Shown here: positions 1-17,542 of the stretch, one piece after another | How positions within the stretch are numbered: the first letter of the stretch is position 1 | Layout of the letters: every line of letters begins with the position of its first letter | Origin: a virus | Taxonomy: Duplodnaviria > Caudoviricetes | IMG/VR virus record: IMGVR_UViG_3300021089_000280 | Span: 1 to 24,207 of that record | Reading direction: 5' to 3' (one strand) | Length of the DNA stretch: 24,207 nucleotides | Notes under the pieces: generated by a model | Told to the model about the DNA's origin: nothing | The model's database searches: none | What the model saw: only the letters and a program-made list of their open reading frames with translations | Translations under genes and position numbers: made by a program

Positions 1-253
1 ATATAAATTAGATCAAGCAGAAAGACTCAATGCCCATCAGTTTAATAAATTTGAAGGGTGGATGTGTAATGCAGGATATCAAAGTTGTATTATTCGCGAA
101 CCGGGAGGAGAAATTAAACGTGCTTATAGTTGCCATGATGATCCTTTAGGTACTATTGAAGATGGATTTACTTTATTTAAAGAACCGAAGGTTTGTATAA
201 CACCGACTTGTGTAAGTAGTGCAGATAGTAAAATACCAAAAGAAAAAATATGA
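1..253 (+). CDS. 3' fragment of a radical SAM protein (C-terminal SPASM/Twitch-like domain); gene begins before the window
   Basis: The frame is open from position 2 (YKLDQAERLNAHQFNKFEGWMCNAG...), so ATG 62 is internal. NKFEGWMCNAG...SC...CITPTC..AD..I.K aligns by eye with the C-termini of 4495..5391 (NKFKGWSCTAG...TC...CTRDWCTCAADINLTK) and 3513..4514. Confidence 0.75.
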   Translation, partial: YKLDQAERLNAHQFNKFEGWMCNAGYQSCIIREPGGEIKRAYSCHDDPLGTIEDGFTLFKEPKVCITPTCVSSADSKIPKEKI

Positions 254-870
254 AAATAGATGTTAATGATATAGCTTATTGGATGGATGCAATCCGTGAT
301 GAAGATAATCATCAACGTTATCATATGCTAGAAAGCTTCTGGCACGGGCAACTTAAAAGTAAAGTTTGGTTATGTGAGGAACTTCCTAAAGTTACTCATG
401 CAACAACAAATAAAATAGTTATTTTTGGAGGGTGGTATGGAATTTTGGCTACAATGCTTTTTAACAGCGAACTTGGTGTACGACATATTAGATCTATTGA
501 TATTGACCCTGCGTGTAAAGACATAGCGTTAAAAATGAATAAAAAATATGAAATAGCTGAACCGTCTGCTTTTGAGGCAGTTACAGAAGATATGTGTAAT
601 TATGAATATACAGAAGATCCACAGATTGTTATTAATACAAGTTGTGAACATATTACGCAAGAACAATATGATACTTGGTTAAAAAAAGTTCCAAGCGATA
701 CATGGATAGTTGTACAAAGTAATAACTTTTCCTCACATAAAGAACATATTAATTGTTCTGATAGTCTTGATGATTTTAAATGGAAGTCAAAGATTACTAG
801 AGAGTTTTATTCAGGTACATTAGAATTACCTAAATATGATAGATATATGATTATAGGTAGAAAAAAATGA
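250..870 (+). CDS. Class I SAM-dependent methyltransferase
   Basis: Gly-rich motif I (VIFGGWYG), acidic motif II (SIDIDP), DM and INTSCEH segments; ATGA overlap with the next gene. Confidence 0.75.
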   Translation: MKIDVNDIAYWMDAIRDEDNHQRYHMLESFWHGQLKSKVWLCEELPKVTHATTNKIVIFGGWYGILATMLFNSELGVRHIRSIDIDPACKDIALKMNKKYEIAEPSAFEAVTEDMCNYEYTEDPQIVINTSCEHITQEQYDTWLKKVPSDTWIVVQSNNFSSHKEHINCSDSLDDFKWKSKITREFYSGTLELPKYDRYMIIGRKK

Positions 871-2288
871 CAGACAGTAACGAATATTGGTATAACCCTG
901 CAGACTCGCAGTTAGGAAAATGGCAACGTCAGTTAGAAGACGTTTCTAAATCTCCTACCTTCTGTGTTTTACCATGGATACATTTTGCAACAAGACCTAA
1001 TGGTGATATGCGTTTATGTTGTAGTGCTAATGCCAGCGGAGCGGCTACTGGTGATCATGAAGTAGGATTAGTAAAAATGGAACACGGCAAGCCTGCGAAC
1101 TTTGGCCGAGAAACACCAATGGAGGCATGGAATAATGACTATATGAAGTCAGTAAGAACTACTATGCTTAAAGGCCAAATTCCTGCTAGTTGTACTAAAT
1201 GTTTCCAAGAAGAAAAAATAGGTGTTGTTAGTAAACGAATTTGGGAAACAGGAACATGGTATAAAGACGGTGTAGATATTCCCGAATTAATTAAACAAAC
1301 ACAAGAAGATGGTACAGTTCCTGAACAGTTAATATATTTAGATTTACGTTTAGGTCATACGTGTAATGTTAAATGTGTAATGTGTAGTCCACATGATTCT
1401 AGTCAATGGGTTAAAGACTGGAAAGAATTAGTTCCGCAATTAGAAGATCCTGAAGTAAAAAGGCAAATGGCTTGGGACAAATCAGAGTTTAATAATAAGT
1501 GGCATGAGAAGGAAACGTTTTGGGAAGAAATGTACAAGCAAATTCCTAATTTAAAGCAAGTATATTTTGCTGGCGGCGAACCTTTAATGATTAGAGAACA
1601 TAAAACGTTTATTGAAGAAATTATACGTCAAGGCTATCAAGATAAAATCTTATTAAGATATAATTCAAATGGTATATTAGTAGATGAAGATTTAATTGAG
1701 TTATGGAGTAAGTTTAAGAAAGTTAAATTTGCAGTTAGCATGGATGCTTGTTTTCAACGTGATGAATATATACGTTTTCCAACGGAATGGTCAGTTGTAG
1801 AAAAGAATCTTCGTATGCTAGATAATACTCCTGATAATATACAAACAAGTTTAGCTACTGCTATACAGATCTTTAATGTAAAACACTTACCTGATTTTAT
1901 GAAGTGGAAAGTAGAATCTAAATTTAAAAAACTTAATTTGGGTACAGTTCCGGGTGGTACACAAATGGGTGGTGGATTAGTTAATATGCATTTACTTTAT
2001 ATTCCTACGTTTTTAAGTATACAAATATTACCTAAAGAAGATAAGCAAGAAGTTAGAGAGCGTTATTTAGAATTTAAAGATTGGCTGTTTATTAATTATA
2101 GACAAGATGATGAGTACTGGAAAATTAATCCCTATGGTTGGAAACGTTGGGAAGCAGTAATGGATCATATGGATGCACAAGACAATAGTCATTTACTTCC
2201 AGGCTTTAAAGAGTACGTAAACAAACTAGACGCTATTAGAGGATTAAAAGCGGCTAAGATTTTTCCGGAATTGAAACATTTATTATGA
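867..2288 (+). CDS. Radical SAM protein with N-terminal Twitch/SPASM-like Fe-S domain
   Basis: CNVKCVMC (CxxxCxxC), YFAGGEP, YNSNG; N-terminal FCVLPW...CC...CTKC cysteine set. Confidence 0.9.
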   Translation: MTDSNEYWYNPADSQLGKWQRQLEDVSKSPTFCVLPWIHFATRPNGDMRLCCSANASGAATGDHEVGLVKMEHGKPANFGRETPMEAWNNDYMKSVRTTMLKGQIPASCTKCFQEEKIGVVSKRIWETGTWYKDGVDIPELIKQTQEDGTVPEQLIYLDLRLGHTCNVKCVMCSPHDSSQWVKDWKELVPQLEDPEVKRQMAWDKSEFNNKWHEKETFWEEMYKQIPNLKQVYFAGGEPLMIREHKTFIEEIIRQGYQDKILLRYNSNGILVDEDLIELWSKFKKVKFAVSMDACFQRDEYIRFPTEWSVVEKNLRMLDNTPDNIQTSLATAIQIFNVKHLPDFMKWKVESKFKKLNLGTVPGGTQMGGGLVNMHLLYIPTFLSIQILPKEDKQEVRERYLEFKDWLFINYRQDDEYWKINPYGWKRWEAVMDHMDAQDNSHLLPGFKEYVNKLDAIRGLKAAKIFPELKHLL

Positions 2289-3520
2289 ACCAACAGTTTC
2301 TACTTAATAAATCAAAATACTTTTGTATGGCGCCTTGGACTCATATGCATAGTTGGCCTGATGGTAGAACATTTGCCTGTTGTCAAGTTCAACCACAAGG
2401 AACTGATCTAGATGATTACGGTAATATAAATGAAAAAAGCATATATGAATTATGGAATAGTAAAACAATTAAAAAATTAAGACTTAATATGCTTAATGAA
2501 CGCCCAAGTAACTCTTGTAAAAGATGTTATGAGATGGAAGCCGCGACAAGTCCTTCATTAAGAAAACAACTTAATAAGAAGTTAAGAAGTTATTTCGACC
2601 AAGTAAAACAAACTAAAGAAGATGGCGGGCATGATACACCTAAAATGGCATATTTTGATTTACGTTTTAGTAATTTGTGTAATATGATGTGTAGAACGTG
2701 TAGCCCTGCATTAAGTTCAATGTTATATGATGAAGAAAAAGCATATGGAAAGGTATCTAAAAAGTTTTTACAGATTAATGATCAGAAAAATTTTATGAAT
2801 GAGCTATGGCCACTAATGGATGATGTTAAAGAATGTTATTGGGCCGGCGGTGAACCATTAATAATAACTGAGCATTGGGATATAATGAATTATTGGGTTA
2901 ACAATGGACATAGTAAAAAAGTTACTGTTGTTTATAGTACAAATTTTCTTAATCTATTATATAAAAATCAATCAGTATTTGATTTATGGAATAAGTTTAA
3001 AAATGTAGAAGTAGTAGCAAGTTTAGATGGTAGTTACAAGAGGGCTGAGTATATACGTAAAGGAACCAAGTGGGAAACTATTGTTAAAAATAGAAAACAA
3101 ATGATTAAAGATACACCTAATACAAAGTTTAAAATTGGACCTACTGTTAGTATTATGAACATATGGCATTTGCCTGACTTTCATAGAGAGTGGTTAGAAT
3201 TGGGATTGTTAGATAAGCCAAACAAAGTACATTGGAATATTTTAACAACCCCAGAATGGTTTAATATTCAAGTATTGCCTAAAAGTTTTAAACAAGAGGT
3301 TGAACAAAAATGGAATAAACATTTACAGTGGTTAGAGAAAAATTATTTGGTAAAACAAGATGATAAAGATGCTATTGCTGGTGTTTTAAGATATATGAAT
3401 GCTTCTGATAAATCGCATTTACTTCCATCTACAATCGAAAAACTTAAATTTATAGATGGTATACGTAATGAGAATTGGCAAGATGTTTTTCCCGAGTTAG
3501 AGAGTTATATAAATGAATGA
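2285..3520 (+). CDS. Radical SAM protein with N-terminal Twitch/SPASM-like Fe-S domain
   Basis: CNMMCRTC, YWAGGEP, YSTN, SLDG; N-terminal FCMAPW...CC...CKRC; paralogue of 867..2288 (shared SHLLP...D.IR...FPEL tail). Confidence 0.9.
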   Translation: MNQQFLLNKSKYFCMAPWTHMHSWPDGRTFACCQVQPQGTDLDDYGNINEKSIYELWNSKTIKKLRLNMLNERPSNSCKRCYEMEAATSPSLRKQLNKKLRSYFDQVKQTKEDGGHDTPKMAYFDLRFSNLCNMMCRTCSPALSSMLYDEEKAYGKVSKKFLQINDQKNFMNELWPLMDDVKECYWAGGEPLIITEHWDIMNYWVNNGHSKKVTVVYSTNFLNLLYKNQSVFDLWNKFKNVEVVASLDGSYKRAEYIRKGTKWETIVKNRKQMIKDTPNTKFKIGPTVSIMNIWHLPDFHREWLELGLLDKPNKVHWNILTTPEWFNIQVLPKSFKQEVEQKWNKHLQWLEKNYLVKQDDKDAIAGVLRYMNASDKSHLLPSTIEKLKFIDGIRNENWQDVFPELESYINE

Positions 3521-4514
3521 GCAACTTAATAGAATAGTTTCAACACAACCTTCTAATGTTTTAGATATTAGATTCTGGCCAACTGATATTTGTGATTATG
3601 ATTGTACATATTGTTTTCCTGATTCTCATCCTGGAATACATAGGTATCCTAAAAATATTGATACTGTAATAAACAATTTCAGAACATTGTTTGATGTTTA
3701 TACTAAAAAATTTAATAAAACAGAATTTTGGTTGTGTTTAGTAGGTGGCGGCGAGCCAACCCTTTGGCCGCATTTTAATACATTTTGTAGAGAAATTAAA
3801 AAAGAACATAATGTTCGACTTAAAGTAACAACTAATGCTTCTAGAACTTTAAGATGGTGGGACCAAAATGTTGAATACTTAGATAGAGCAACGTTAAGTG
3901 CCCATCATGAATTTATAGATATAGATCATTTTATGAAAGTAGGTGATTTTTTATATGAATGTGATTTAAATATTGGGGCATTAATGTTAATGGATTGTGA
4001 GCATTGGGATAAGTGCGTTGCTATTGTAGAGAAGATGAAAACTAGTAAACAACCTTGGATTATTGAAGCTAAAAGCATTGTTCAATTCCCAGGTAAAGAT
4101 ATTAACTCTTATACTCAAGAACAAATAGACTATGTTGCAAATACTATTAAAAGAGTTCCAGACCCAAAGTACATATTAAAACATATTGATGATTTTAATG
4201 TATTTCAAAGTGTTGCTTTATTTAATGATGGTACTGCAACAACTATGAAGTCTGAAGATTATATTCATAACAAATGGAATTATTTTAATGATTGGACTTG
4301 TCATGTACCTATAGAAAATTTAGTTATAGTATATGATGGTACTGTTACAGGATCATGTAATGCAAATATTTTTAAAGATGCAAAAATTAACATTTTTTCA
4401 GAAACATTTAAAGAAGAATTTGAAGAAAAATCATTTGATTTAAAACCAATTAAATGTCCATTTAAGGTTTGTAATTGTTTACCTGATACTCATATTACAA
4501 AGTATATTTCGTAA
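3513..4514 (+). CDS. Radical SAM protein with C-terminal SPASM/Twitch-like domain
   Basis: CDYDCTYC, GGGEP, TTNAS; C-terminal WTC...SC...CPFKVCNC. Confidence 0.88.
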   Translation: MNEQLNRIVSTQPSNVLDIRFWPTDICDYDCTYCFPDSHPGIHRYPKNIDTVINNFRTLFDVYTKKFNKTEFWLCLVGGGEPTLWPHFNTFCREIKKEHNVRLKVTTNASRTLRWWDQNVEYLDRATLSAHHEFIDIDHFMKVGDFLYECDLNIGALMLMDCEHWDKCVAIVEKMKTSKQPWIIEAKSIVQFPGKDINSYTQEQIDYVANTIKRVPDPKYILKHIDDFNVFQSVALFNDGTATTMKSEDYIHNKWNYFNDWTCHVPIENLVIVYDGTVTGSCNANIFKDAKINIFSETFKEEFEEKSFDLKPIKCPFKVCNCLPDTHITKYIS

Positions 4515-5391
4515 GATTAATATCCGCGGCACAAGTACACCAATCTCGTGTACAAATAATATTTTCAGTTGGTCTTTTAAAAGTACCTTTATAGATATTA
4601 CCTAAACTACCCCCAACGCGACAAGTAGCACGATGTACATCACCATCCCAATTTACCATTAAACTTTCCAATCCTGCTGTACAGCTCCACCCTTTAAATT
4701 TATTGGTTTTATTAATAAGCAAGTCATTTACGTTACATTCAACCTTCCCATCAATTAAAGTATTAACAGGTGGATTGTGATTTTCGGTCTTTAAAAAGTC
4801 CAATTCTTCCTTAGAATAGCGTTCCAAATCTTCAAAAATATCATGTGCTTCAGTCCAGCGTATAGGACGTAAAGCATAGGGTATATTCGCTTTAGAAAGG
4901 CGTCTACAAGCTTCTGTAACGTCGTTTAAGCGGTGGTTTAGCATCATGACGTGTACAAGTACCATCTTGTTTTTAGATGCATTATATACGCTTATAATGG
5001 TCTCCAAAATACGTTCCCAATCGTACTCAAAGTGCAAACTAAACACTATATGATCTAAGTATTTGGATAGCATATCTACATAAAAATCTTTGGTTCTTGT
5101 TCCGTTTGTTGTTACATTAATCCAAGTAACTTTTGGGCGAGCATAATCTAAGAGGGCAGTAATGTCTGGGTGAACAAACGGTTCACCTCCTGTAAGGCTA
5201 ATTCTTACATTTTCAATTTTGGCTAATTCGTCAACGGCTTTTTTAAGTGTTTTAATATCCGTATGCGGACTAACCATATCATGAATTTCAGCTGGACAAT
5301 ACGAGCAATCGTAATTACATCGTTTACCCAAGTTCCATTCAACCTTAACACTTTTAGCATAATGTTCATATTTGTTCTCTACTCTAAACAT
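4495..5391 (-). CDS. Radical SAM protein with C-terminal SPASM/Twitch-like domain
   Basis: CNYDCSYC, LTGGEP, TTNGT; C-terminal WSC...TC...CTRDWCTC. Confidence 0.9.
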   Translation of the reverse strand: MFRVENKYEHYAKSVKVEWNLGKRCNYDCSYCPAEIHDMVSPHTDIKTLKKAVDELAKIENVRISLTGGEPFVHPDITALLDYARPKVTWINVTTNGTRTKDFYVDMLSKYLDHIVFSLHFEYDWERILETIISVYNASKNKMVLVHVMMLNHRLNDVTEACRRLSKANIPYALRPIRWTEAHDIFEDLERYSKEELDFLKTENHNPPVNTLIDGKVECNVNDLLINKTNKFKGWSCTAGLESLMVNWDGDVHRATCRVGGSLGNIYKGTFKRPTENIICTRDWCTCAADINLTKYTL

Positions 5392-6197
5392 CGTACAGTT
5401 CCAATCTTATCATATACTGAAAGAGTTCTTACAATGTCTTTATATGATTTATGATTTAATTCACTTGCTTCAAGATCAATTTTAGCTACAGGAATCATTC
5501 CAAAGCTATTTTTTTTAAAAGTAAGGCCTTTTTCCTTAAGCCATCGATTAATTTGCAATTTCCTTAAAACGTGCATAAGCCAATTAACATTTTTGCCAAA
5601 TTTTATCATAACATCAGAACTATAATGTGTTTGAGGTTCGTCTATAGTATATTCATCATTATCTTTAAAAATATCTAGCATATTTTTACCTACATGGCAA
5701 TAATTAATATATACTTCACCGAATCGCCATTTAAATGTAAAGTCATTATAATCTTCTAATTTTCGTCTAGGTCTATTTTTAAATGTTACAACGACTGTAG
5801 CCGCATTACCTCTTTTTTGTGATTCATATTCGTGAATTAATATATTAAATTTTTTAAGAGCTTCTTGAATATTATCAGGTGCGTTGTTAAACCAATCTGT
5901 ACCTATTGTAATTTCACCACGTAAGTTTTCAAAATAAGTATGTAAATAATTTAAATTAGTTTTGTCAGTGGCTCTAATATCTATTACTCTATCATAAGCA
6001 TTAATAATTCCAATTTGTTCATTAATTAACTTAACATAATTTTTCTTTTGTCCAGGCCAATCAGTAAATCTTGTGCTTTCGTCTATTTCATTATAATTTA
6101 TTAATTCTTCATACCATTTTTTAGCAATTTCAGTATCGTATGTATTAAAGTATACCCATTTACTATCTTTATTGTTTTTAAATAATATTTTAAACAT
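5379..6197 (-). CDS. Hypothetical protein within the radical SAM operon
   Basis: Long ORF overlapping both neighbours. Start moved from 6227 to ATG 6197, which overlaps the upstream stop at 6190-6192. No family recognised. Confidence 0.7.
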   Translation of the reverse strand: MFKILFKNNKDSKWVYFNTYDTEIAKKWYEELINYNEIDESTRFTDWPGQKKNYVKLINEQIGIINAYDRVIDIRATDKTNLNYLHTYFENLRGEITIGTDWFNNAPDNIQEALKKFNILIHEYESQKRGNAATVVVTFKNRPRRKLEDYNDFTFKWRFGEVYINYCHVGKNMLDIFKDNDEYTIDEPQTHYSSDVMIKFGKNVNWLMHVLRKLQINRWLKEKGLTFKKNSFGMIPVAKIDLEASELNHKSYKDIVRTLSVYDKIGTVRCLE

Positions 6198-7467
6198 AGT
6201 CAGCAAACTCAGGATTAATTTTATCAAATGGACCTTGCCTTCTTTCTGTATCTAATGTTTTATTAAATGCAATACAGTCTTGCCAATATTCTGATAAGTC
6301 CTTTGCTTCTAAGAAGTTTATATTATCAGTAATTTGTTGTTGTGTAATCTTTTTCAAAATAGGATGTTTTTTTACTAATTTATAGTTGTCTACTTTAGTG
6401 TACATATTAACTAGTTGTCTAATTACACTTTCTTTTAACGGTTTGGGCAAAACTTGGGCACTTAATACTCTTGGGTATTGTACTCTATGACTATAAAATA
6501 CTATTTCTAGTTTATCTAAAAAGTACTCAATAACTGTTGGCATTTGCAATACATTGTTAGCTTGAACAGTAAATGCACCAACAATTCTACTTACAGTTGG
6601 AATCTTTTTCATTTCTTTAACATTGTTTATAACTTCATTAAAGTTACCATCAGTACGAATGTATTCATAAATGTCCCATAAGCCGTCAATACTAACATTA
6701 ACTGCTACACTTTTAAATTTAGGCCAATACTCATGGACAGTTCGTTTACCTTTAATACCAAGTGTAGTTCCGTTTGTAGCATACTTAATTTCTATATCTT
6801 TACCATAGGGTTCTAACATATCTAAAATTTTATAATGCATAGGATCCATTAAGGGTTCTCCACCAGCAAATTCTACTCGTCTAAAGTGTGGTAATAACTT
6901 TTCAAAACTTTTCCACCAGTTAGGACTATCATCAAATAACCCTACATATGGTGCTTCAGTTAATCCTAATTTTTCTACAGCATCAACAAGATAATTGTTT
7001 TCAGCTTTATAATGATGTACAATAGATTTCCAATCTTTCCATTGTGTACTATCTAATGGATTACACATACGACATCTTAAGTTACACAAGTTATTAATTT
7101 TAATTTCCATAGTTGGCAATTCAAATGGCATTGTGTAATCGTCTTTTAATGTGTCTAATGCATTAGGATATAAGTTAATTCTTGATTCAGGAATAACATT
7201 ACTAATATGTCGTTGACGTAAACTTTGTACACCTTGGTCTTCTAAATCAAAGCACGGTTTACATACGTCAGGACGTTCGTTGTTTAAAACTTGTCTACGA
7301 ACTTCGAGCATTTTTTCATTGTTCCATGCTTCTTCTAATGTTTCGTTTTGTATCCAACCAATAGGTTGACTACGACAGCAAATTTTAATTGCGCCATCTT
7401 CTCGTGTTGCTAACCCTGTAAAAGGGTGCATACAAAATGTACATGATTTACAGGTTTCTTCTGTCAT
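6190..7467 (-). CDS. Radical SAM protein with N-terminal Twitch/SPASM-like Fe-S domain
   Basis: CNLRCRMC, FAGGEP, YATNG, SIDG; N-terminal FCMHPF...CC...CKPC. Start placed at ATG 7467 (ATGA overlap with upstream stop) rather than 7497. Confidence 0.88.
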   Translation of the reverse strand: MTEETCKSCTFCMHPFTGLATREDGAIKICCRSQPIGWIQNETLEEAWNNEKMLEVRRQVLNNERPDVCKPCFDLEDQGVQSLRQRHISNVIPESRINLYPNALDTLKDDYTMPFELPTMEIKINNLCNLRCRMCNPLDSTQWKDWKSIVHHYKAENNYLVDAVEKLGLTEAPYVGLFDDSPNWWKSFEKLLPHFRRVEFAGGEPLMDPMHYKILDMLEPYGKDIEIKYATNGTTLGIKGKRTVHEYWPKFKSVAVNVSIDGLWDIYEYIRTDGNFNEVINNVKEMKKIPTVSRIVGAFTVQANNVLQMPTVIEYFLDKLEIVFYSHRVQYPRVLSAQVLPKPLKESVIRQLVNMYTKVDNYKLVKKHPILKKITQQQITDNINFLEAKDLSEYWQDCIAFNKTLDTERRQGPFDKINPEFADYV

Positions 7468-8243
7468 GATATACTCTCGGCCTCCTTTATAGCCCATTCT
7501 CGTTCTTTACACCAAAAACACTTTCCACACTCAGGAACGGATTGTCCTGGAACATACGTTTTATAATCTAAGTTTCCAAAGACTTCAGGATAGTGTGTTC
7601 TATCACCCTCGCAACTACGAGTAAGTGATAATAGTCCTCTAATATTATGTTTATAATATTGTGCAATAATCCAATCTTTGCTTGTATAGATAAAAGGATG
7701 ACATACTGTTACGCCCATATGTTCTCTAATTAAAGGTGTTAGGTCTTCTGTAGGCTCAATATCTCTATCATCTAATTTACCTTTAAAATCTTTTGTAGGA
7801 TTTTTGTTTACACCGGCAAACCACGCATCAAGCCCATACCTAAATGCAATATATTCTGCGTGTGAGCGTAATATAATTTGATTACCGCTTTTTAATTTTC
7901 CATATTCATCAATAATATTAGGTCCTTTATCGCCCCATTCTAAATCGGGTGGAATAAAGTTTTGGTGCATAGTAAACCTATGATCAGGAAAGCGTTCTTC
8001 TAACCAATTATATACGTCTAATGCATTATATTTTTGCCACGGTCTAGTTTTCCACATTCTAATATTAGTTAAGATATGTATATTAGCTGTATGACTAGTA
8101 CTAGAGCATATTAAGTAAGCTAACAAGGCACTATCTGCCCCACCACTTAAACTAATACCTATATTTCGCCATGCTTGTAATATAGGAAATTCTACCTCGC
8201 CATACTTAACGATATTGTCAGCGTATTGTGTTTTTTCTAGCAT
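7464..8243 (-). CDS. QueC-like PP-loop ATP pyrophosphatase (divergent)
   Basis: PP-loop ISLSGGADS; PF...K..I; TRSC...CGKCFWC Zn-binding set as in QueC. The QueC RN and YPDC motifs are not seen, so no symbol is assigned. Confidence 0.7.
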   Translation of the reverse strand: MLEKTQYADNIVKYGEVEFPILQAWRNIGISLSGGADSALLAYLICSSTSHTANIHILTNIRMWKTRPWQKYNALDVYNWLEERFPDHRFTMHQNFIPPDLEWGDKGPNIIDEYGKLKSGNQIILRSHAEYIAFRYGLDAWFAGVNKNPTKDFKGKLDDRDIEPTEDLTPLIREHMGVTVCHPFIYTSKDWIIAQYYKHNIRGLLSLTRSCEGDRTHYPEVFGNLDYKTYVPGQSVPECGKCFWCKEREWAIKEAESIS

Positions 8244-8248
8244 TATTA

Positions 8249-8292
8249 TATTTACCGTAATTCTCTGGGCAGTTAATTACTTCCGATAAGTA
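8249..8292. promoter_or_regulatory. Divergent late-promoter-like motifs: TAAATA (minus, 8249-8254) and ATAAGTA (plus, 8286-8292)
   Basis: The only real intergenic gap in the enzyme cluster, lying between divergent blocks; motifs resemble the T4 late promoter TATAAATA. Confidence 0.45.
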
Positions 8293-8300
8293 TGTATATC

Positions 8301-8972
8301 ATGTTAAAAAATACATACATCTATCATGATGTGACTGAGATTGTTGATATATTACCGCCCTTGAAAGAAGGTAAAAATGATTTTACCAAACAAACTGGAA
8401 AATTTTTTTACGACCCGTGGGAGGTATTACCAGAGTATAAAGGTACATCATTAGAAGAATTGCATAATAAATTACCACGTGCTGGCCAAATGCGAGCTAT
8501 GGTAATGCATGAAGGTGATTGTTATTCTGAACACGCCGATATTGATGATAGATATCATTTAACAATAGATGCAGAAACTAGTTATTTGATTGACCTAGAT
8601 CATGACAAAATGTATCCTACATTAGTTAATAATACAGTTTACTTAATGAATGGTGGTACAATTCATACAGCCGCTAATTTCGGTCATGTTCCTAGAACAG
8701 AATTAGTAGTAAGACAATTACTAACTCATAATAAGTTAAAAGATCCTGTTAGATTAAATTTAGCTGTTAATTATGATGTATTTGATTTACGTTATCGTTT
8801 TGATCTTGTGTTTAGTCCTTGGTTAAACCGTGCAAATAAAAATGGTATAATTGATAATTTTGAACCTGTCAGTGAAAAACAAATACTTGTAGATTTAGAA
8901 AAAGAGTATCTAGACGAGTTTAAAGGTTTAATTGAATTTTCAGAATTACCAGTGGAGATGAAAATTGACTGA
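8301..8972 (+). CDS. Fe(II)/2OG-type (Asp/Asn beta-hydroxylase-like) oxygenase with C-terminal extension
   Basis: HxD...H triad (SEHADIDDRYH...IHTAANFG..PR). Start is 8301 or 8292. Confidence 0.65.
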   Translation: MLKNTYIYHDVTEIVDILPPLKEGKNDFTKQTGKFFYDPWEVLPEYKGTSLEELHNKLPRAGQMRAMVMHEGDCYSEHADIDDRYHLTIDAETSYLIDLDHDKMYPTLVNNTVYLMNGGTIHTAANFGHVPRTELVVRQLLTHNKLKDPVRLNLAVNYDVFDLRYRFDLVFSPWLNRANKNGIIDNFEPVSEKQILVDLEKEYLDEFKGLIEFSELPVEMKID

Positions 8973-9531
8973 AATTAAATGGAAAGAATTTCGTAAAATT
9001 ATTGATGGCAAATTAGACAGAGGTAGTTTGGCCTATGATGCCTATGTTAGTAAAGATCAATATTTAATGCATTTTGATAGTGAATTTTTCTTTAAAAAAG
9101 AACTAGAACATATGGAAAGGTTATCTGAAAAATCATATGCACCAGAAGTAGATAAAATAGATTTAGAAAAATTGATGATTTATCTTCCTCTTTATGATAA
9201 TTTAAATCATTTAATTGCAGAAAACAAAGCACCCGATGATTGGAAAGAACAAGTGCATAAAATTATTGAAGACCTAGAACGGATGAATGTTTGGAAACTA
9301 AACTTGTTTACTCATTGCTTTTATGTAAAAGAAGGATCATTACATATAATAGATCTTTATGGTTGTGTATTTGATGATGAAATTGTTACGTTTGGTCAAA
9401 TTGATCCTATTTTATCAAAACGATCAAGGAATCTTTTCTTACAGTTTAAAGAATTAGATGGAATTGTTGATATGAGAGAAGCATATAGATATAGCAAAGT
9501 AAACAATGTTTGGGGATTACGTGATGATTGA
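8965..9531 (+). CDS. Degenerate protein-kinase-like fold protein
   Basis: TTG start with GGAG at 8954-8957. FKKEL...APEV..ID, WKLNLFTHCF (catalytic-loop position) and IIDLYG (DFG position); paralogue of 11731..12438. Confidence 0.55.
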   Translation: MTEIKWKEFRKIIDGKLDRGSLAYDAYVSKDQYLMHFDSEFFFKKELEHMERLSEKSYAPEVDKIDLEKLMIYLPLYDNLNHLIAENKAPDDWKEQVHKIIEDLERMNVWKLNLFTHCFYVKEGSLHIIDLYGCVFDDEIVTFGQIDPILSKRSRNLFLQFKELDGIVDMREAYRYSKVNNVWGLRDD

Positions 9532-10021
9532 TTGGGATAATATCCTAGAAGAAATTAAAGATAATCCAGGTCAAAATGCTCCGTTTAGATTACCTTTAGA
9601 TGAACCAGTAGTAAGAAAGATGATAGATGATTTAAAAGGATATCCATCAGAATCAATTGAATGGTTTAATTATTATCCTGCTGTAGATTTTAATGTTCGT
9701 GTAGTAAAGGAATTTAGTGATCTTGTAGAAAAGGAATGTGTTCGTGCGTGGATTAGTAAAATTAATCCAGGAAAAACAGCACCGTGGCATTGGGACTGGG
9801 ACGCTAATGAACAGTCATATCTTAAGAAAGGGGACCTAGTTAGATTTCATGTAAGTATAAGTCCACCTTCACCAGGTCATGTGTTTATGGTTGATGATAA
9901 ATGTTTTTATAATGAAAGGCAAGGTACAATATATGAATGGGAAAATCATAGGTCATATCATGCTGGAGCAAATTGCGGAAGCAAACCAAAGTTCCTTTTT
10001 AATTTTTTAGGTTATAGATAA
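9524..10021 (+). CDS. Asp/Asn beta-hydroxylase-like Fe(II)/2OG oxygenase
   Basis: ISKINPGKTAPWHWD...RFH...YHAGANCG..PK (HxD...H). Likely start at ATG 9524 after GGGGA, rather than 9506. Confidence 0.75.
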   Translation: MIDWDNILEEIKDNPGQNAPFRLPLDEPVVRKMIDDLKGYPSESIEWFNYYPAVDFNVRVVKEFSDLVEKECVRAWISKINPGKTAPWHWDWDANEQSYLKKGDLVRFHVSISPPSPGHVFMVDDKCFYNERQGTIYEWENHRSYHAGANCGSKPKFLFNFLGYR

Positions 10022-10929
10022 TGAAATTAGTACAAGTTCCTGACACATATACAGAAGAACATATTAATAGTGATAGACTAGGAGGAATGATCCCTTTATT
10101 TGATAAACGGATAGAGAAATTAATACATAATTTAAAAACTAAGAATATTGAATTTTTAGATCATACATTAATGACGTTAAATGAAAAGGTTGGTGTAGAT
10201 TTATTTGAACGCTTTAAACATGATTTTACTAATCATTTAAAGTCATCTATGTATAATCATTTAACTGGCTTTGAAGCATTTAAAGAAGTAGATATTATTG
10301 CAGGCTGTACACAATTCTTTGATGACTTATATGTTATGAATAAAGACATACAAGTTTTACAAAACGAATACAAATATCACGAATTATTAAATCCTAATTT
10401 ACAATATAGAACAGTTGAATCATTAAGAGCTCATACTCCATTAGTTATTAGTTTACCTTTTAGCTTTCATGGTCAAGAGCATCCAGAGATGGATAAAATT
10501 TTAGAAGAATGTTTAGAGCGATATATACCAGTGCATATAGATTCAGCTTGGATACCTGCTAGTAGAGACATTTGTTTTAATTATGATCACCCTGCTATAC
10601 ATTCTTTTGCTATAAGCATGAGTAAAGGATATGGTACTGCTGGTTGGAATCGTATAGGGTTACGTTGGCAAAGAACACGTAAAGGTTATGACACTATTAA
10701 CATATTAAAAGACTATCATCAAATAACTACATATCCTGTAGCAGTTGGATTATATTTTTTAGATAACTTATTACCAGATCATTTGTGGGCTACACACAAA
10801 GAACGTAATGAGAAAATTTGTAAAGACTTTGGTTTAACACAAACGAAAGCAATTCATATGGCTAGGAATGGTGAAACAAATTATGGGCTTTCGCCTTTAA
10901 TTAGATATTTGGAGTATAATAATGCTTAG
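10021..10929 (+). CDS. PLP-dependent fold-type I enzyme (aminotransferase-like)
   Basis: VHIDSAW (pyridine-binding Asp), SMSKG (Schiff-base Lys) and downstream RIG; short for the family. Confidence 0.7.
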   Translation: MKLVQVPDTYTEEHINSDRLGGMIPLFDKRIEKLIHNLKTKNIEFLDHTLMTLNEKVGVDLFERFKHDFTNHLKSSMYNHLTGFEAFKEVDIIAGCTQFFDDLYVMNKDIQVLQNEYKYHELLNPNLQYRTVESLRAHTPLVISLPFSFHGQEHPEMDKILEECLERYIPVHIDSAWIPASRDICFNYDHPAIHSFAISMSKGYGTAGWNRIGLRWQRTRKGYDTINILKDYHQITTYPVAVGLYFLDNLLPDHLWATHKERNEKICKDFGLTQTKAIHMARNGETNYGLSPLIRYLEYNNA

Positions 10930-11731
10930 AGGAATTGGCGGGCAACCGTATATTGCATTAGATAATTATCTAGATATCGACGGATTTAAAAAACTCAATC
11001 CAGAAATTTGCAAAGGATTTGCTTTAGCAAGGGAATATGCAAAAGAAGGAACTTGGATGGAGCCTGGATTTAAGTTTGATGATATGAGTTACGTTTTAAA
11101 TTGGAAACCTATTTATAAAGCATTTGCAGAGTATCAGGAATTACCCGCTGACGACCCAATTAAAATTCAAGGTGCTGAAATATTTCCAAAAGATTTTAAG
11201 GATTATAAACAAAGAAATTTATTTACACGATATCTTAAAGGAGCATTAGGAGCCAACGATCCTTACATATATTATTTTCTTTGGGAAGAAGGTGATTGGC
11301 ATAAACGTAATGCTGAACGTAAACCAACAGAAGAAGCAAAATATTTTCCTGGTGTTGTAAAGTGGGTTGAAGACTTAATTGAAAAAAATGTTATTACACA
11401 AATAGGAAGAGTTATCTTTTTTCATTGTGAACATGACGGTCATGCGTTCGAACATCGTGACCTAGATGGCTCTAAAGGTACCGATCAAGGCTTTAGTCCG
11501 CATAACAATGAGTTTATTCATATAAGATATAGAACTAAAAGAGGCTTTTATATATGGGATCCTGAAGCTAAACAGAAACATTATGTTAATTCTTGTGCCG
11601 CTTTTTGGAATGATCAAGATTGGCATGGTGGTGAAACTAGTAATGAACAAGAGTATGGTTTAAGAATCGACTGTAAGTTTAGTGATCGCTTTAGAGAAGA
11701 AATAGGTATAGCCTACCTGGAGCATTATTAA
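10922..11731 (+). CDS. Putative Fe(II)/2OG-type oxygenase (DSBH fold)
   Basis: GRVIFF...FEHRD...DWHGG...LRID pattern in the C-terminal half (HxD...H...R). Confidence 0.55.
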   Translation: MLRGIGGQPYIALDNYLDIDGFKKLNPEICKGFALAREYAKEGTWMEPGFKFDDMSYVLNWKPIYKAFAEYQELPADDPIKIQGAEIFPKDFKDYKQRNLFTRYLKGALGANDPYIYYFLWEEGDWHKRNAERKPTEEAKYFPGVVKWVEDLIEKNVITQIGRVIFFHCEHDGHAFEHRDLDGSKGTDQGFSPHNNEFIHIRYRTKRGFYIWDPEAKQKHYVNSCAAFWNDQDWHGGETSNEQEYGLRIDCKFSDRFREEIGIAYLEHY

Positions 11732-12438
11732 TGAACTATAATTATTATTACAATAACGTTCCTGGTAAAGGTCAATGTAGAAATAACTTAATTTATACAA
11801 GCCTTATGAGTGAGGACAAGACTGAATTTGTACAGTGGTATTACAATGATACAGAATATCATAATGGACAAAATGAAGTTGTTGATCCTGCTTTAATGCA
11901 ACAAAAATGGGAAAGAGAACTTATATTTTTACAGTTTATGGAATCAGAAGCACCCAATATGATTCCACGAATTATAGATATTGATGATGAGCAACGTAAG
12001 ATTTTTCTTGAAGTCCAAGGTCCAGATTTTTGGGAACAGGCAAGATGTAATCAAGATAATTTTAATTCAGTTTGCCCAGACTGGCAAGAGCAGATGTTAG
12101 ACATACTTGAAGTTCAACAAGATTTAGGTCTTTTTAAATTTAGTTTGCACCCTAGTAGCTATTTTTTAGTTAACGGAAGATTGAAAAGTATTAATTATTT
12201 CTTTTGTTATTCACAAGAAGAACAGTTAATCACAGTTAATGAACATTTAAGTCATATTAGTCGTGATAGACAAAAAGAATTATTCCCACAAATGGAATTA
12301 AAAGGTATTAGTGTTAATGAACCTCAGCAATATAGAGACTTACAGATGTTATGTTTTGATAGTTTCGCTAGTGATTATCCTGCAGAATTTATAGAAGAAG
12401 CAAAGAAGATATATAGTGTACAAAATAATCCCTTATAA
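11731..12438 (+). CDS. Degenerate protein-kinase-like fold protein
   Basis: WERELIFL...IPRIIDID...IFLE, DWQEQ, FKFSLHPSSYF, SINYFFC; colinear with 8965..9531. Confidence 0.55.
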   Translation: MNYNYYYNNVPGKGQCRNNLIYTSLMSEDKTEFVQWYYNDTEYHNGQNEVVDPALMQQKWERELIFLQFMESEAPNMIPRIIDIDDEQRKIFLEVQGPDFWEQARCNQDNFNSVCPDWQEQMLDILEVQQDLGLFKFSLHPSSYFLVNGRLKSINYFFCYSQEEQLITVNEHLSHISRDRQKELFPQMELKGISVNEPQQYRDLQMLCFDSFASDYPAEFIEEAKKIYSVQNNPL

Positions 12439-12982
12439 TGAATCAATAGACCTTACTGAATTTTATAAAGAAGCACATCAAAGAGGATTGCATAATAATT
12501 CTACTAAGAAAATGCTCTTTGATAGTATTAGTAATGAACGTGAATGGCAAGTATGGATTTTATATTATAATAATGAAATAGTTGGTACTACAGCCGCCCA
12601 TAGTTTAGATATTATGGGAAATAATTGTTATAGAATTGCCGCACGAAGTTGTGTGTTTACTGATAAATTGCCTTTAAATCATATAAGAACATTAACAGGA
12701 ATTAAAGAACATCAAAATGCTACAGCTCAGTTTCTGATTCCTATTTGTATCGAATGGCAACCATATGCTAACTTATATATTACTTCTAACGAACATGAAC
12801 AGGGTACTCAAAGACAAGTTCATAGGATTTTTTGTCCTGCTTTAGAAAAGACAGGTGCTTTAAATAAGGTAGCTGAAAAGGAATATAGAGGTCATAAACA
12901 AACTTTTTGGGAAGTTAATGTTGATGTTTATTATAGACAGTTAGATGAATTTGGCCGATGGCCAATTGAAGGATTAGTGTAA
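12416..12982 (+). CDS. Hypothetical protein, possibly GNAT-fold acyltransferase
   Basis: GTG start, 188 aa; VWILYYNNEIVG...RIAARSCV...LYITS strand pattern resembles GNATs, but no clear motif A. Confidence 0.45.
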   Translation: MYKIIPYNESIDLTEFYKEAHQRGLHNNSTKKMLFDSISNEREWQVWILYYNNEIVGTTAAHSLDIMGNNCYRIAARSCVFTDKLPLNHIRTLTGIKEHQNATAQFLIPICIEWQPYANLYITSNEHEQGTQRQVHRIFCPALEKTGALNKVAEKEYRGHKQTFWEVNVDVYYRQLDEFGRWPIEGLV

Positions 12983-14332
12983 TGCTACCCAAGCCGCGCC
13001 TGTGCGTCCTTGGAATTCACTATCAGTAGTATTATAAATTATCATTCCGGCTTCAGCCGTTAATGCATCTCTTTCAACAGTAGTTAAGTTACCTACTTTA
13101 TGATAACCACTAACTCGTGCGTTACCTGTAACGTCTAATGCTGAAGTTGAATCTGCAACTCCTGTTCCACCAACGCAAAGTCTTCCAGCACTATCAACTG
13201 TTATACCAGCCCATGTACTACCACCATCCGGTGTTGAAATAAGATATATTTTTCCTGGTACTGCACCAGTGGCAATTGTAGCACCCGGTTCAACACTCCA
13301 CTGAATCATACTTGATACTGTGTCTTCGTTAGTGCCGTCGTGTCCGTGTACTTTAATTGATGTTAGCTCGTCGCCTGCTTGTACAACTGTTTTAGTTGCT
13401 AAATTTCCTCTTGAAACTTTGTAAACTATACCTGTAGATTGTGTTCCAGTTGATAAACTTTGTACTTCAATAATTTTATCTGAAGCCGCACCAGCTTTGA
13501 AATTAATTCCTTGTGTTGAAACATCAGTATCTCGTCCAATTGTTAATTTTCTACCAATGCCTGGCGTAGAAGTTATATCAAGATAGCCTTCACTAAATGT
13601 AACTGTACCATTACTGAGTGTTCCGTTTAATCCATCTACTAATACTGTTGAGTCGTCTGCAAATACAGAACCTTTAACATCACCTGTTACTGTTCCTGTA
13701 AAACTTGACGCTTGTAAACTTCCAGAAAATACTCCACTAACTGCATTTACAGCCTTTGAAGTTGCATTAAAAAATGATGAGTTATCAGTTGCATCAACAT
13801 CACCTTTAAATGTTCCTGTTGCGTTTAAGGCTCCAGTTGCTTTATTAAGTAAAACAGTAGAGTCGTCTGCAACAATATTGGCATTAACGTTTCCGGCGTT
13901 AACATCTTGAGTTACATGAATGGTATTATACCATCCTTGATTAAATTTATTAGTTGAAGAGCCAATGTTTCTTGCTCCGTCAACATCAGGAATAACATGA
14001 CTTTCTACTTTAGCAAGAATATTAACTGTATCTGATGTAGCATCACCTATTGTAAGGTTACCGCCGAGTGTAAGATCTCCGTCTGCTGTAATACTACCTG
14101 TTACAGTAATATTACCATCTGTATTGATGTTACCTGTACCAGTAATATTGTAGTTATTTAGATCTAAATTTGACCCTAAAAACTCACCTGCTGTATCAAC
14201 AGGATTTCCACCAGCTTGTGTTCCATCGCCGATATATAGTCTTTTGGTATCTGTAGTGTATATTAATTCACCATCTGCTGGTGTTATTAATACTCTTTCT
14301 GCGTTTGTACCTCTGCGTAGTCTTAAAGCCAT
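12974..14332 (-). CDS. Tail-fibre/virion structural protein with Mtd-N (major tropism determinant N-terminal)-like module
   Basis: N-terminus LRLRRGT..ER....PADGELIYTTDTKRLYIGDG; Gly/Thr/Asn/Asp-rich beta-repeat body; GGAG RBS at 14343-14346; ATAAATA upstream. Confidence 0.75.
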   Translation of the reverse strand: MALRLRRGTNAERVLITPADGELIYTTDTKRLYIGDGTQAGGNPVDTAGEFLGSNLDLNNYNITGTGNINTDGNITVTGSITADGDLTLGGNLTIGDATSDTVNILAKVESHVIPDVDGARNIGSSTNKFNQGWYNTIHVTQDVNAGNVNANIVADDSTVLLNKATGALNATGTFKGDVDATDNSSFFNATSKAVNAVSGVFSGSLQASSFTGTVTGDVKGSVFADDSTVLVDGLNGTLSNGTVTFSEGYLDITSTPGIGRKLTIGRDTDVSTQGINFKAGAASDKIIEVQSLSTGTQSTGIVYKVSRGNLATKTVVQAGDELTSIKVHGHDGTNEDTVSSMIQWSVEPGATIATGAVPGKIYLISTPDGGSTWAGITVDSAGRLCVGGTGVADSTSALDVTGNARVSGYHKVGNLTTVERDALTAEAGMIIYNTTDSEFQGRTGAAWVALH

Positions 14333-14361
14333 TTATTGTTCACTCCTGGATATCGTATATG

Positions 14362-14368
14362 TATTTAT
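14362..14368 (-). promoter_or_regulatory. Late-promoter-like ATAAATA upstream of the tail-fibre-like gene
   Basis: CATAAATA about 30 nt before the ATG; second copy at 14380-14386; resembles the T4 late promoter TATAAATA. Confidence 0.55.
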
Positions 14369-14382
14369 GCCATTAACATTAT

Positions 14383-14703
14383 TTATTTGTTCTTCTTCAA
14401 GAAGCCCCGGGTACGTTTTTGTATATCCTTTTTCACACGATCTGTATCTACTCTGAAATCAATGTGTTTAATAGTGTTTTCATACGTGATGAAGAGATCA
14501 TGTAGGGTTTTTTCTAGCTTATTTACAGGGTTTTTATTCTGGGGATTGTCGTTCATTACGACATCCCAGACCTTACCGTTAGAGAATTCCACCCTTACAG
14601 AATGCAAATATTGAAGCGGAATGGCCTTAATATCTATGTCTTTAAATACTTCGGGCCATTTGTCAATAACATTTTGTGGTAGACGCTTCCTAGGCCTTGC
14701 CAC
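14383..14703 (-). CDS. Hypothetical protein
   Basis: 106 aa ORF, GTG start overlapping the upstream gene, basic termini. Confidence 0.7.
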   Translation of the reverse strand: MARPRKRLPQNVIDKWPEVFKDIDIKAIPLQYLHSVRVEFSNGKVWDVVMNDNPQNKNPVNKLEKTLHDLFITYENTIKHIDFRVDTDRVKKDIQKRTRGFLKKNK

Positions 14704-15289
14704 GAGCGGTAGTCTTCTTGCTAGGGCTCAGTTCTTCTGCTTGTTTCCGAAGATCAGTTGCTTCTTTGAATAGACCATCTGCATCTGCACGTAGTTTAGT
14801 AGCTAATTTTTCGTCTGATAACGGTGTTTCAGCAGTTTGACTCTCTGCGGATGCATCGGGAGTTTCAAGTGTACGAACCTCGCCAACTTCCTCTACAGAA
14901 CTTCCACCTACTGCAAGATCTTTGATCGCTACACCTTTTATTTCTGCAATCTGTTTGTTAAGCTCGTCAAGGCTTACTACAGTTGAAGGGTTTGGTGTCA
15001 TTTCAACGTTAGACGTACTAACTTTAGTTAGGTTTCCTGTTGTATGGAAACGTGCTAACATTATGCTACCGTCACCAAGTGGTGTACGTTGCATAGCATC
15101 TGCAAGTTCGTCAGCAACTTGACCTGTGTTACTTTCAATTAATGTCATTAAAAGATCATGGTCAGCGTCGCGTAAATTTTCAGTCGGACATACTAGGCAA
15201 CTTTCAGGTTCTCCTGGTAATGTACGGAAGACAACAGCCACTTTACGTCCTGTTTTCTTCATTCGACCGATATGTTTTAAGTCAGCCAT
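14690..15289 (-). CDS. Hypothetical protein with C-terminal coiled-coil-like segment
   Basis: 199 aa, GGAG RBS, TAATG coupling with the upstream stop. Confidence 0.8.
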   Translation of the reverse strand: MADLKHIGRMKKTGRKVAVVFRTLPGEPESCLVCPTENLRDADHDLLMTLIESNTGQVADELADAMQRTPLGDGSIMLARFHTTGNLTKVSTSNVEMTPNPSTVVSLDELNKQIAEIKGVAIKDLAVGGSSVEEVGEVRTLETPDASAESQTAETPLSDEKLATKLRADADGLFKEATDLRKQAEELSPSKKTTARGKA

Positions 15290-15642
15290 TATTTGTCTCC
15301 TGTTGTAGCTGGCTTGGCTGGCGTTGCCGGAGCATTGCCTGTTGCCGCTACTTGTTGATTTTGAATACTAGTTAAAAATGTTTCTAACTTTGTATATGTT
15401 TTACCGACTGCTTCTAGTTCGTTGGCTTTAAATGCCCCACGACTTTGAGCAACTTCGATAACAGTTTTTAACACTCCTAAATCTTGAACTGTTAGTTCAG
15501 GATTACCTGGGGCTGGCCCGTCGGCCGGCGCACCTGTAGGAGGTAGTGTTGTAGCTGATGGTGTTGTCGGAGCCGTCGGAGCCGCTTGAGGCGGAGTAGC
15601 CGAGGTTCCTTCTGTTGCCATCGCTTGTTTTCCATCTGACAT
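15289..15642 (-). CDS. Hypothetical protein with Pro/Ala/Thr-rich arms around a short helical core
   Basis: AGGAG RBS at about 15650-15654; low-complexity termini flank ELTVQDL...SRGAFKANEL...FL. Confidence 0.8.
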   Translation of the reverse strand: MSDGKQAMATEGTSATPPQAAPTAPTTPSATTLPPTGAPADGPAPGNPELTVQDLGVLKTVIEVAQSRGAFKANELEAVGKTYTKLETFLTSIQNQQVAATGNAPATPAKPATTGDK

Positions 15643-15685
15643 ATATGTTCTCCTTTTAGATGTATTGTATATTATATACGTATAT

Positions 15686-15692
15686 TATTTAT
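15686..15692 (-). promoter_or_regulatory. Late-promoter-like ATAAATA (a TATAAT also lies at 15671-15676)
   Basis: Located in the AT-rich gap upstream of 15642; no good -35 found for the TATAAT. Confidence 0.4.
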
Positions 15693-15985: not shown

Positions 15986-15990
15986 ACCTT

Positions 15991-17539: not shown

Positions 17540-17542
17540 CCG

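Follow-up and report, generated by a model that had tools for sequence, protein, structure and literature searches.

On which substrate does a virus employ a whole battery of radical S-adenosylmethionine (SAM) enzymes? The question is raised by the Caudoviricetes record IMGVR_UViG_3300021089_000280, whose entire length of 24,207 bases was analysed and is referred to here as the window. A first, sequence-only reading had recognized a biosynthetic-like cluster at 1-12982 and had named virion proteins or their glycans, hypermodified bases and a small molecule as candidate substrates of an undescribed pathway. In the present study the cluster was found to be part of a real and conserved island located among the fibre genes of jumbo phages. 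We propose, with a probability of about one in two, that this island serves the late-expressed tailoring of a virion glycan.

Of an island measuring about 20-33 kb in PA5oct/GAP32-like phages of about 350 kb, the window represents the right half. In the long contigs G001-G004 and in the complete 357-kb genome G006 the island starts directly after tail-fibre/tail-collar genes recognized by PHROG and stops at a gene with an Mtd_N domain, in the order baseplate, tail-fibre/collar, families F51, F28 and F22, an F19-like gene, F6, radical SAM block, oxygenase block and Mtd_N gene (g17), the latter at an equal position in all five. All 13 radical SAM matches of G006 lie within its 33-kb island. The features of the window are the following (coordinates, strand, description):

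2..253, +, g01: C-terminal Cys-rich 83 amino acids of a 319-amino-acid radical SAM protein, cut at the contig edge
250..870, +, g02: fold of a class I SAM-dependent methyltransferase of the small-molecule type
867..2288, +, g03: N-terminal-twitch radical SAM protein; NF033640 394.6 bits; query for 80 loci
2285..3520, +, g04: N-terminal-twitch radical SAM protein, variably present; NF033640 385.4 bits
3513..4514, +, g05: radical SAM protein carrying a Cys cluster at its C-terminus; scores weakly as viperin/MoaA-like (NF038283 37.9 bits)
4495..5391, -, g06: radical SAM protein, paralogous to g05 and g01, likewise carrying a Cys cluster at its C-terminus; NF038283 61.2 bits
5379..6227, -, g07: soluble accessory protein of 282 amino acids; 54 homologues; pN/pS 0.31
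6190..7497, -, g08: N-terminal-twitch radical SAM protein; NF033640 315.3 bits
7464..8243, -, g09: QueC-like PP-loop ATPase with SGGxDS and a C-terminal four-Cys site; 2125 homologues
8249..8292, both strands: back-to-back T4-late-type boxes, TAAATA (-, 8254-8249) and TAAGTA (+, 8287-8292)
8292..8972, +, g10: Fe(II)/2-oxoglutarate hydroxylase domain plus unassigned C-terminal domain; likely ATG at 8301
8965..9531, +, g11: kinase-fold protein without catalytic-loop Asp; adjoins g10 in 30 of 34 loci with both
9506..10021, +, g12: probable Fe(II) oxygenase; invariant H95-x-D97...H152 (19 sequences)
10021..10929, +, g13: probable pyridoxal phosphate (PLP)-dependent enzyme, accessory; 225 homologues
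10922..11731, +, g14: probable Fe(II) oxygenase; invariant H178-R-D180...H235 (10 sequences)
11731..12438, +, g15: kinase-fold protein (Kdo/RIO/APH/Bud32-like) without catalytic-loop Asp and DFG Asp
12416..12982, +, g16: possible GNAT-fold protein, unconfirmed; adjoins g15 in 13 of 16 loci with both
12974..14332, -, g17: Mtd_N fibre-like gene (PF18454, E 2.4e-11) closing the island on the right; candidate acceptor

Conservation and mosaicism of the island

All 16 open reading frames (ORFs) within 1-12982 were verified in place and strand. As the sequence-only reading had described, they overlap or abut with one interruption: overlaps measure 1-38 nt and the sole exception is a 48-nt gap (8244-8291) between the divergent g09 and g10. 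Its six radical SAM genes correspond to five intact genes and the cut C-terminal end of a sixth (2-253), and its view that the cluster continues past the left edge was corroborated by contig L001 (99.9% identical over window 1-3203), which holds a complete 319-amino-acid g01 gene with CxxxCxxC and, ending about 1.76 kb left of the window edge, F6. Inside the window a precursor peptide and a glycosyltransferase are indeed missing, as had been stated.

The viral origin was likewise borne out. A core gene (14690-15289) matches 85 cultured phage records, with PA5oct-, GAP32- and Atu_ph07-like jumbo phages at the top, and judged by this one gene the virus groups with them; its relative G002 encodes a T4-type major head protein, portal, baseplate wedge and late sigma factor. 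Since G006 is 100% complete at 357,559 bases and relatives of 62-105 kb amount to 17-30% of a genome according to CheckV, a genome size of about 350 kb results. A cellular origin was considered and rejected: in a GTDB scan, which detects close relatives only, the single match was a 3,537-base contig (L104, PUNK01000001.1) in a Thermoplasmata metagenome-assembled genome, and as this contig carries F2 (a further radical SAM family), g03 and two more island radical SAM genes at 57-78% identity in phage gene order, it is probably a mis-binned phage fragment. To the right of the island, window 16194-18683 holds a MoxR-type AAA ATPase together with a DUF2201 metallopeptidase/vWA pair, which belong to the conserved core of these jumbo phages, and 21287-21973 a stand-alone 2-oxoglutarate (2OG)-Fe(II) oxygenase without nucleotide match in G001.

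A scan of IMG/VR with g03 yielded 232 relatives; the 80 best were retained. These form 14 clusters at 90% g03 identity, so that counts over the 80 loci are not independent; high g03 identity is a result of the selection, and many loci are cut short. Homologues of the block co-occur in these loci, as a functional unit had been expected to do: g02 was found in 79, F2 in 77, g01 and g06 in 71 each, F6 in 66, g08 in 65, g05 in 62, g09 in 54, g10 in 50, kinase-fold genes in 40, g12 in 36 and g14 in 22. The core set of g02, g03, F2, g01, g05, g06, g08, F6, g09 and g10 is present in 11-14 of the 14 clusters, and a scan with the g09 alignment gave 451 relatives. Ratios of non-synonymous to synonymous polymorphism (pN/pS) against G001 are 0.08-0.35 in 13 of the 14 island genes examined (g01 and g04 left out), g16 being the exception at 0.62. 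The island is under purifying selection, and together with the co-occurrence of homologues these values argue that the observation is not due to chance.

Around this core the gene content varies. Seldom found are g04 and g07 (8 loci each) and g13 (3 loci), and accessory genes encode UDP-sugar dehydrogenases, epimerases, TauD, AspH-type hydroxylases, aminotransferase III, B12-type radical SAM proteins and an alternative oxidase, joined in relatives by a desaturase, an LpxO-type hydroxylase and a cold-shock/oxygenase fusion; nucleotide-sugar dehydrogenases occur in 9 and epimerases in 7 of the 80 loci. Inserted in the island of some relatives are the alternative oxidase (L052:7324-7932), a PaaD-like Fe-S assembly protein (L010:3063-3353) and a protein-isoaspartate methyltransferase (L003:4665-5315). 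Among near-identical contigs the island is mosaic gene by gene: L005 is 100% identical to the window in g06-g16 and 86-94% in g01-g05, G001 reaches 99% identity in no gene but g05, and L002-L005, L057 and G009 have no g04 at this place. Metagenomic chimeras may add to the apparent mosaicism, though g04 also shows lower contig depth, in both contig runs. The convergent block of g03-g05 and g06-g08 (867-5391, 6190-7497) is inverted in L011-L015, L040-L045 and G002-G004; here the methyltransferase operon leads into g03 and g09 into g08, whereas other lineages show the reverse.

The phage is common in marine samples. Contigs from two other marine studies span 8064-9264 and 11538-13664 with zero differences, 2153-3585 is spanned in one study, and 14 DNA runs belonging to 10 studies, whose labels read marine or plain metagenome, contained 89-95% of the sampled words. 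RNA-library contigs cover 26, 27, 12 and 11 of 30 bins (window 1-20000), although contigs cannot show transcription, strand or level; raw DNA reads (1 and 38) were too sparse for use.

Neighbours, late-type boxes and enzymes of a predicted glycan pathway

The glycan among the candidate substrates gained support because glycosyltransferase-fold genes lie just outside the window. F6 is situated upstream of the radical SAM genes in all 56 loci whose sequence extends 1.5 kb or more upstream of g01/F2. It possesses an invariant DxD, and its AlphaFold model (predicted local distance difference test, pLDDT, 92) retrieved GT-A and nucleotidyltransferase folds in Foldseek (E about 1e-4, template modelling (TM) scores 0.35-0.49), while VIA gave, against B4GALNT1, Z 11.4 and a root-mean-square deviation of 2.7 (135 residues), every one of the 50 rows listed being a GT-A or nucleotidyltransferase fold. 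F6 is accordingly modelled as a GT-A fold with DxD and predicted to be a glycosyltransferase, the fold being common to nucleotidyltransferases. F22 and F28 we take to be GT8-like from the look of their motifs. At the other end of the island, g17 consists of 13% Thr, 8% Ser, 8% Asp and 7% Asn.

The timing of expression is addressed by the two boxes in the gap, of which TAAATA ends 5 nt before the ATG of g09 and TAAGTA 8 nt before the likely ATG of g10. TAA[AGT]TA was found 4-8 nt before an ATG in 45 of 50 g10 and 26 of 49 g09 genes, and in none of 79 g03, 78 g02, 76 F2 and 65 g06 genes. Strict TAAATA-N5-ATG is the commonest spacing (67 versus 4-36 for other spacings), and the baseplate-wedge gene, too, has this layout in front of it in all three long contigs scored (G002, G003, G004). 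The exact octamer TATAAATA has a single occurrence in the window, which falls within g14 and on the other strand; the analysis therefore relied on the shorter box. From the T4 late promoter consensus and the encoded late sigma factor we infer that the boxes are late promoters. The layout TAAATA-N5-ATG also stands before a gene for a 124-amino-acid protein (G002:94189-94560, contig piece L089), presumably similar to ribosomal protein L7/L12.

Intact CxxxCxxC motifs are present in five window proteins, all of which match Pfam Radical_SAM (four above cut-off, g04 below). g03, g04 and g08 pass NF033640 (N_Twi_rSAM, cut-off 170 bits) across the entire model, and their twitch/SPASM domain (PF13186) at 33-112, 14-82 and 22-82, respectively, lies before the radical SAM motifs at 166, 132 and 138. 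For g05 and g06 the best NCBIfam model is viperin (NF038283, cut-off 180 bits), matched far below cut-off and in the N-terminal part only. NF033640 is a catalogued family, and literature searches, which reached few subscription papers, found neither a reaction or function for it nor a paper on this island; here it occurs in a phage island alongside five further enzyme classes.

The other enzymes named by the sequence-only reading fared unevenly. The methyltransferase g02 was confirmed in its fold: the model (pLDDT 88) has NodS N-methyltransferase among its best Foldseek rows (E 3e-10, TM 0.61, many others close), more than 500 matches at E<=0.001 were obtained, the nearest being small-molecule N-/O-methyltransferases at 7-14% identity, and G60-G61-W62-x-G64 (motif I) and D84/D86 (end of beta2) are invariant. 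In g09 the SGGxDS loop and the four-Cys site, which we take to be marks of a QueC/PP-loop ATP pyrophosphatase, are invariant in 16 of 16 aligned sequences; its QueC likeness thus stands by motif, but the score against PF06508 (18.9 bits) is below the gathering cut-off of 22 and no NCBIfam QueC model matched. It likely activates a carboxyl group, to judge from these motifs. Among the oxygenases, g10 was confirmed by a profile match to Cpz10 (PDB 7V4F, E 1.7e-15 over about 97 positions) with invariant iron triad H81, D83, H125 and 2OG-binding R135 in a cupin core, whereas g12 and g14 are probable oxygenases by their invariant HxD...H motifs, no family or structure match under E 0.4 being found for them and g12 reaching Cpz10 at E 0.6.

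For g11 and g15, which belong to one family, the kinase fold held (Atlas 0.96 to RIO1/APH/Kdo clusters, 10 of the 10 best named matches in one clan; Bud32-type chain at E 0.001) but a kinase function did not follow. The HxDxxxxN motif was placed by eye on the alignment: the alphaC Glu is kept in 22 of 22 sequences, the position so taken for the catalytic-loop Asp is occupied by S (9), N (9), T (3) or A (1) and in none by Asp, that of the Asn by S (9), T (7) or C (6), and the DFG Asp is replaced by Asn in all nine g15-type rows. Because the catalytic Asp is missing, g11 and g15 are probably not ordinary kinases. In g13 D174, S201-K202 and R211 are invariant (32 of 32 sequences), presumably the pyridine-binding Asp and Schiff-base Lys motif of PLP fold type I; this part of the earlier assignment is probable from the motif, but no family match was significant, the best PDB matches being threonine aldolases (E 0.4-0.8) and one of 32 members matching Pyridoxal_deC at E 0.004. 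The possible GNAT protein g16 remained at sub-threshold hints, namely two of 45 distant homologues matching Acetyltransf_1, both under cut-off, and one Atlas cluster with 20% PF00583, and nothing scored above cut-off. Library scans gave no family match for g07, and PDB sequence searches nothing significant for F6, g02, g09, g12, g13 and g14.

According to the scheme proposed here, in which acceptor, sugar and reactions are all predictions, the island enzymes would, at a late stage of infection, build and edit a sugar decoration destined for fibres or baseplate of the phage itself, the phage late sigma factor reading the boxes as late promoters. The GT-A/GT8-like proteins encoded left of the window would use nucleotide sugars to glycosylate structural proteins in the cytoplasm, and six or seven radical SAM enzymes would abstract sugar hydrogens, resulting in oxidation, epimerization or deoxygenation, comparable to BtrN and NeoN, which oxidize or epimerize aminocyclitol and amino-sugar rings (PMC9012708, PMC10991966, in the text available). 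The methyltransferase would cap an amine or hydroxyl, the QueC-like ATPase would amidate a uronic-acid carboxyl, and oxygenases, PLP enzyme and GNAT-like protein would supply lineage-specific substituents, while the Asp-less kinase-fold proteins would be binding partners or perform non-canonical chemistry. Swapping of genes would vary the decoration as in O-antigen clusters and thereby alter host binding, grazing or decay.

Several points weigh against this proposal, which rests on context and fold, the system being known here from genes alone. The proteins inside the window include no recognizable sugar enzyme; the modelled fold of F6 fails to separate glycosyltransferases from nucleotidyltransferases; F6, F22 and F28 have no Pfam match and F6 no PDB-sequence match. 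The closest solved relative of g10, Cpz10, acts on a nucleoside amino acid and not on a glycan. The late-type box shows no more than a modest excess in structural regions, where it precedes 12 of 98 ORFs, compared with 8 of 86 within the island and 3 of 77 in other regions. The cultured Ralstonia phage RsoM2USA retains only the methyltransferase, GT-like genes and one distant twitch radical SAM gene, and since the profiles of g09-g12 and g14-g16 matched nothing in 50 kb around its island, genes g09-g16 could form a second module with another substrate. In Vibrio phage K566 the related cassette lies about 27 kb from the annotated long tail fibres. Finally, the 80 loci were chosen as the best of 232 and represent only 14 clusters.

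A bolder version of the glycan proposal, which we hold only tentatively and think rather doubtful, is that in a widespread group of marine jumbo phages the fibre coat consists of a sugar or sugar-nucleoside not known from any cell, built on an assembly line of secondary-metabolite grade by 6-13 radical SAM enzymes, oxygenases, an amidating ATPase and pseudokinase partners and reshuffled like an antigen locus. If tailoring of this kind takes place, a first function would be at hand for the N-terminal-twitch radical SAM family, and phages, beyond giant eukaryotic viruses and mycobacteriophages, would spend up to a tenth of their genome on editing the particle surface. The decoration could affect host range and particle decay at sea, the phage being common, and the enzymes, with smaller cassettes in two cultured phages, would be a source of new radical sugar chemistry.

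Other possible substrates

Nucleotide sugars could instead be made and edited for the host surface polysaccharide (O-antigen or lipopolysaccharide) and block other phages, which we regard as unlikely. Equal gene types were given this interpretation in pelagimyophage islands (PMC7029224, as far as its available text goes), UDP-sugar dehydrogenases and epimerases, AspH/LpxO-type hydroxylases and a desaturase are among the accessories, and the kinase fold resembles Kdo/WaaP clusters. However, the kinase-fold proteins lack the catalytic Asp, and none of the 16 window proteins has a membrane segment (no 19-residue stretch above 1.5 hydropathy), nor do the four GT-associated families (maximum 1.54). 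Serotype-converting GtrABC-type cassettes possess a membrane flippase/ligase and a bactoprenol transferase, and such membrane parts were not found in the 16 window proteins or the GT families. The late-type boxes, moreover, suggest expression too late for remodelling of the surface.

A diffusible nucleoside- or aminocyclitol-type small molecule, acting as defence inhibitor, signal or antibiotic-like compound, seems quite unlikely to us. It would agree with the relation of g10 to the caprazamycin hydroxylase Cpz10, with the best, though weak, scores of g05 and g06 on the viperin model, with TauD, aminotransferase III and B12-type radical SAM accessories and with the small-molecule methyltransferase folds nearest to g02. 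Yet the viperin score is far below cut-off, Cpz10-type folds are widespread, the loci examined contain no exporter, and the island keeps its fixed place among fibre genes in five of five long contigs mapped.

The fibre protein residues themselves might be cross-linked, hydroxylated or methylated in the manner of RiPPs (peptides made by the ribosome and modified after translation), sugars being secondary; this appears improbable. Twitch/SPASM radical SAM proteins often act on peptides (PMC9012708, in the portion available), AspH-like hydroxylases recur, a protein-isoaspartate methyltransferase is among the accessories, and g17 is rich in Asp, Asn and Thr. On the other hand, the linkage to GT-fold genes is constant, and peptide-maturase models scored the window proteins far under their cut-offs. 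The RiPP candidate of the sequence-only reading lost support, as none of 87 ATG-started intergenic ORFs of 18-75 amino acids in the 80 loci (ORFs overlapping long genes left out) is a conserved precursor, the largest group comprising 8 loci and 3 sequences. A general Pfam scan of the window proteins, in which no search was aimed at it, gave no PqqD-type (RiPP recognition) match.

Hypermodification of bases in the phage DNA, be it to 7-deazaguanines or to pyrimidines that are glycosylated or elaborated, we consider very improbable, even though the QueC-like g09 belongs to a phage with FolE and QueE in the window and phage GT-A enzymes glycosylate DNA, as cited in the accessible part of PMC12619734. 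This candidate, too, lost ground: the complete G006 has a single, canonical thymidylate synthase (TS)-family gene (PF00303) without a second hydroxymethylase-type copy, and RsoM2USA carries, at 2-8 kb and thus more than 200 kb from its island, an unannotated DNA-glucosylation-like locus (MG752970.1 1890-8443) in which a beta-glucosyltransferase stands with a nucleotide kinase, a dCMP deaminase and a second TS-family gene. TET/JBP dioxygenases were matched in none of 8 records, but as control genomes also gave no positive, absence does not follow from this search. The genes of the FolE/QueE region are without late-type box, and contig G009, 99.3% identical to window 3483-24207, runs rightward into a DpdL-like protein with LxxxHRHxF, the signature of a proposed QueC-independent 7-deazaguanine route (bioRxiv 10.1101/2023.04.13.536721, in the text available); FolE and QueE therefore need not use g09. 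QueE and FolE (window 22399-24090), the DpdL-like protein (G009 L189:8273-8749) and QueD (G002 L089:16447-16938) likely constitute, by sequence, a 7-deazaguanine DNA modification set separate from the island. In the same region, a 519-amino-acid protein (G009 L189:9806-11362) and a 350-amino-acid protein near FolE have no PHROG match; we take the former to be a DpdA/TGT (transglycosylase) candidate and the latter to be GT-like.

A loose collection of auxiliary metabolic genes that share no one pathway, suggested by such accessories as the alternative oxidase, the cold-shock/oxygenase fusion and the Fe-S assembly protein and by the metabolic boost offered for Campylobacter phage radical SAM modules (PMC2853527, available text), is hardly credible in view of the fixed core in 11-14 of 14 clusters, the overlapping genes and the conserved convergent layout.

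Known systems and cultured phages

With tailoring of a virion glycan as the preferred reading, it has to be asked how far the island resembles described systems. The searches mapped it to no described pathway, and in this respect the claim of an undescribed pathway stands; however, radical SAM-rich phage modules and radical SAM/glycosyltransferase islands beside fibres are already in print. PMC12619734 (on moraphages) and PMC12801897, in their accessible portions, do not describe it.

The host recognition cluster of pelagimyophages and cyanomyophages is, like the present island, a hypervariable island in the structural region with fibres, glycosyltransferases and gained or lost radical SAM cassettes (PMC7029224), a hallmark also found here. 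It differs in belonging to T4-like SAR11 myophages, in its place between VrlC and gp14 and in that its authors favour a change of the host O-chain; no fixed six-radical-SAM core, QueC-like or kinase-fold genes are described in the available text (PMC7029224). Campylobacter phages CP220 and CPt10, likened by description, share many radical SAM genes in an exchangeable module, there with an amidinotransferase, but in the available text no link to glycosyltransferases is reported and the module is read as metabolic support (PMC2853527). By description, too, a marine T4-like genome with 12 radical SAM genes is comparable (PMC5332604, in part). Mycobacteriophage glycosyltransferases decorate structural proteins, with the glycan measured on capsid and tail tube (Freeman et al., 2023, via PMC12619734), whereas editing by radical SAM enzymes or oxygenases is not mentioned in the accessible part of that source and the present island is known from genes alone. 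Cpz10, the caprazamycin beta-hydroxylase on a nucleoside amino acid (PDB 7V4F; PMC9814697, available text), shares the His/Asp/His triad and the 2OG Arg with g10, which has an extra C-terminal domain and for which a nucleoside is only a possible substrate.

Among cultured phages the island is rare. In a search of 50,697 phage records (E 1e-5) F6 and F22 matched RsoM2USA only and g03 four records; at this threshold the island is therefore missing from most cultured relatives. In RsoM2USA (MG752970.1), a jumbo phage, ORF354-347 at 216-222 kb repeat the left half of the island in the order F51, F28, F22, F6, twitch radical SAM, F6 and methyltransferase behind tail genes; two NF033640 genes are present, and ORF347 is the g02 orthologue (33% identity). 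These ORFs are annotated as hypothetical, and the word 'radical' does not occur in the genome paper (PMC8504454). In 50 kb around this island the profiles of g09-g12 and g14-g16 matched nothing (g13 left out). In Vibrio phage K566 (OZ196521.1 161548-169287, ORF303-309) four N-terminal-twitch radical SAM genes alternate with GT8, GT4-like and GT8 genes in a convergent layout, both GT8 genes being above cut-off. As both phages, in the stretches read, are without the oxygenase, QueC-like, GNAT-like and kinase-fold half (g09-g12, g14-g16), the right half of the window may be an add-on module, whereas the pairing of N-terminal-twitch radical SAM enzymes with glycosyltransferases recurs in these two cultured phages in smaller versions.

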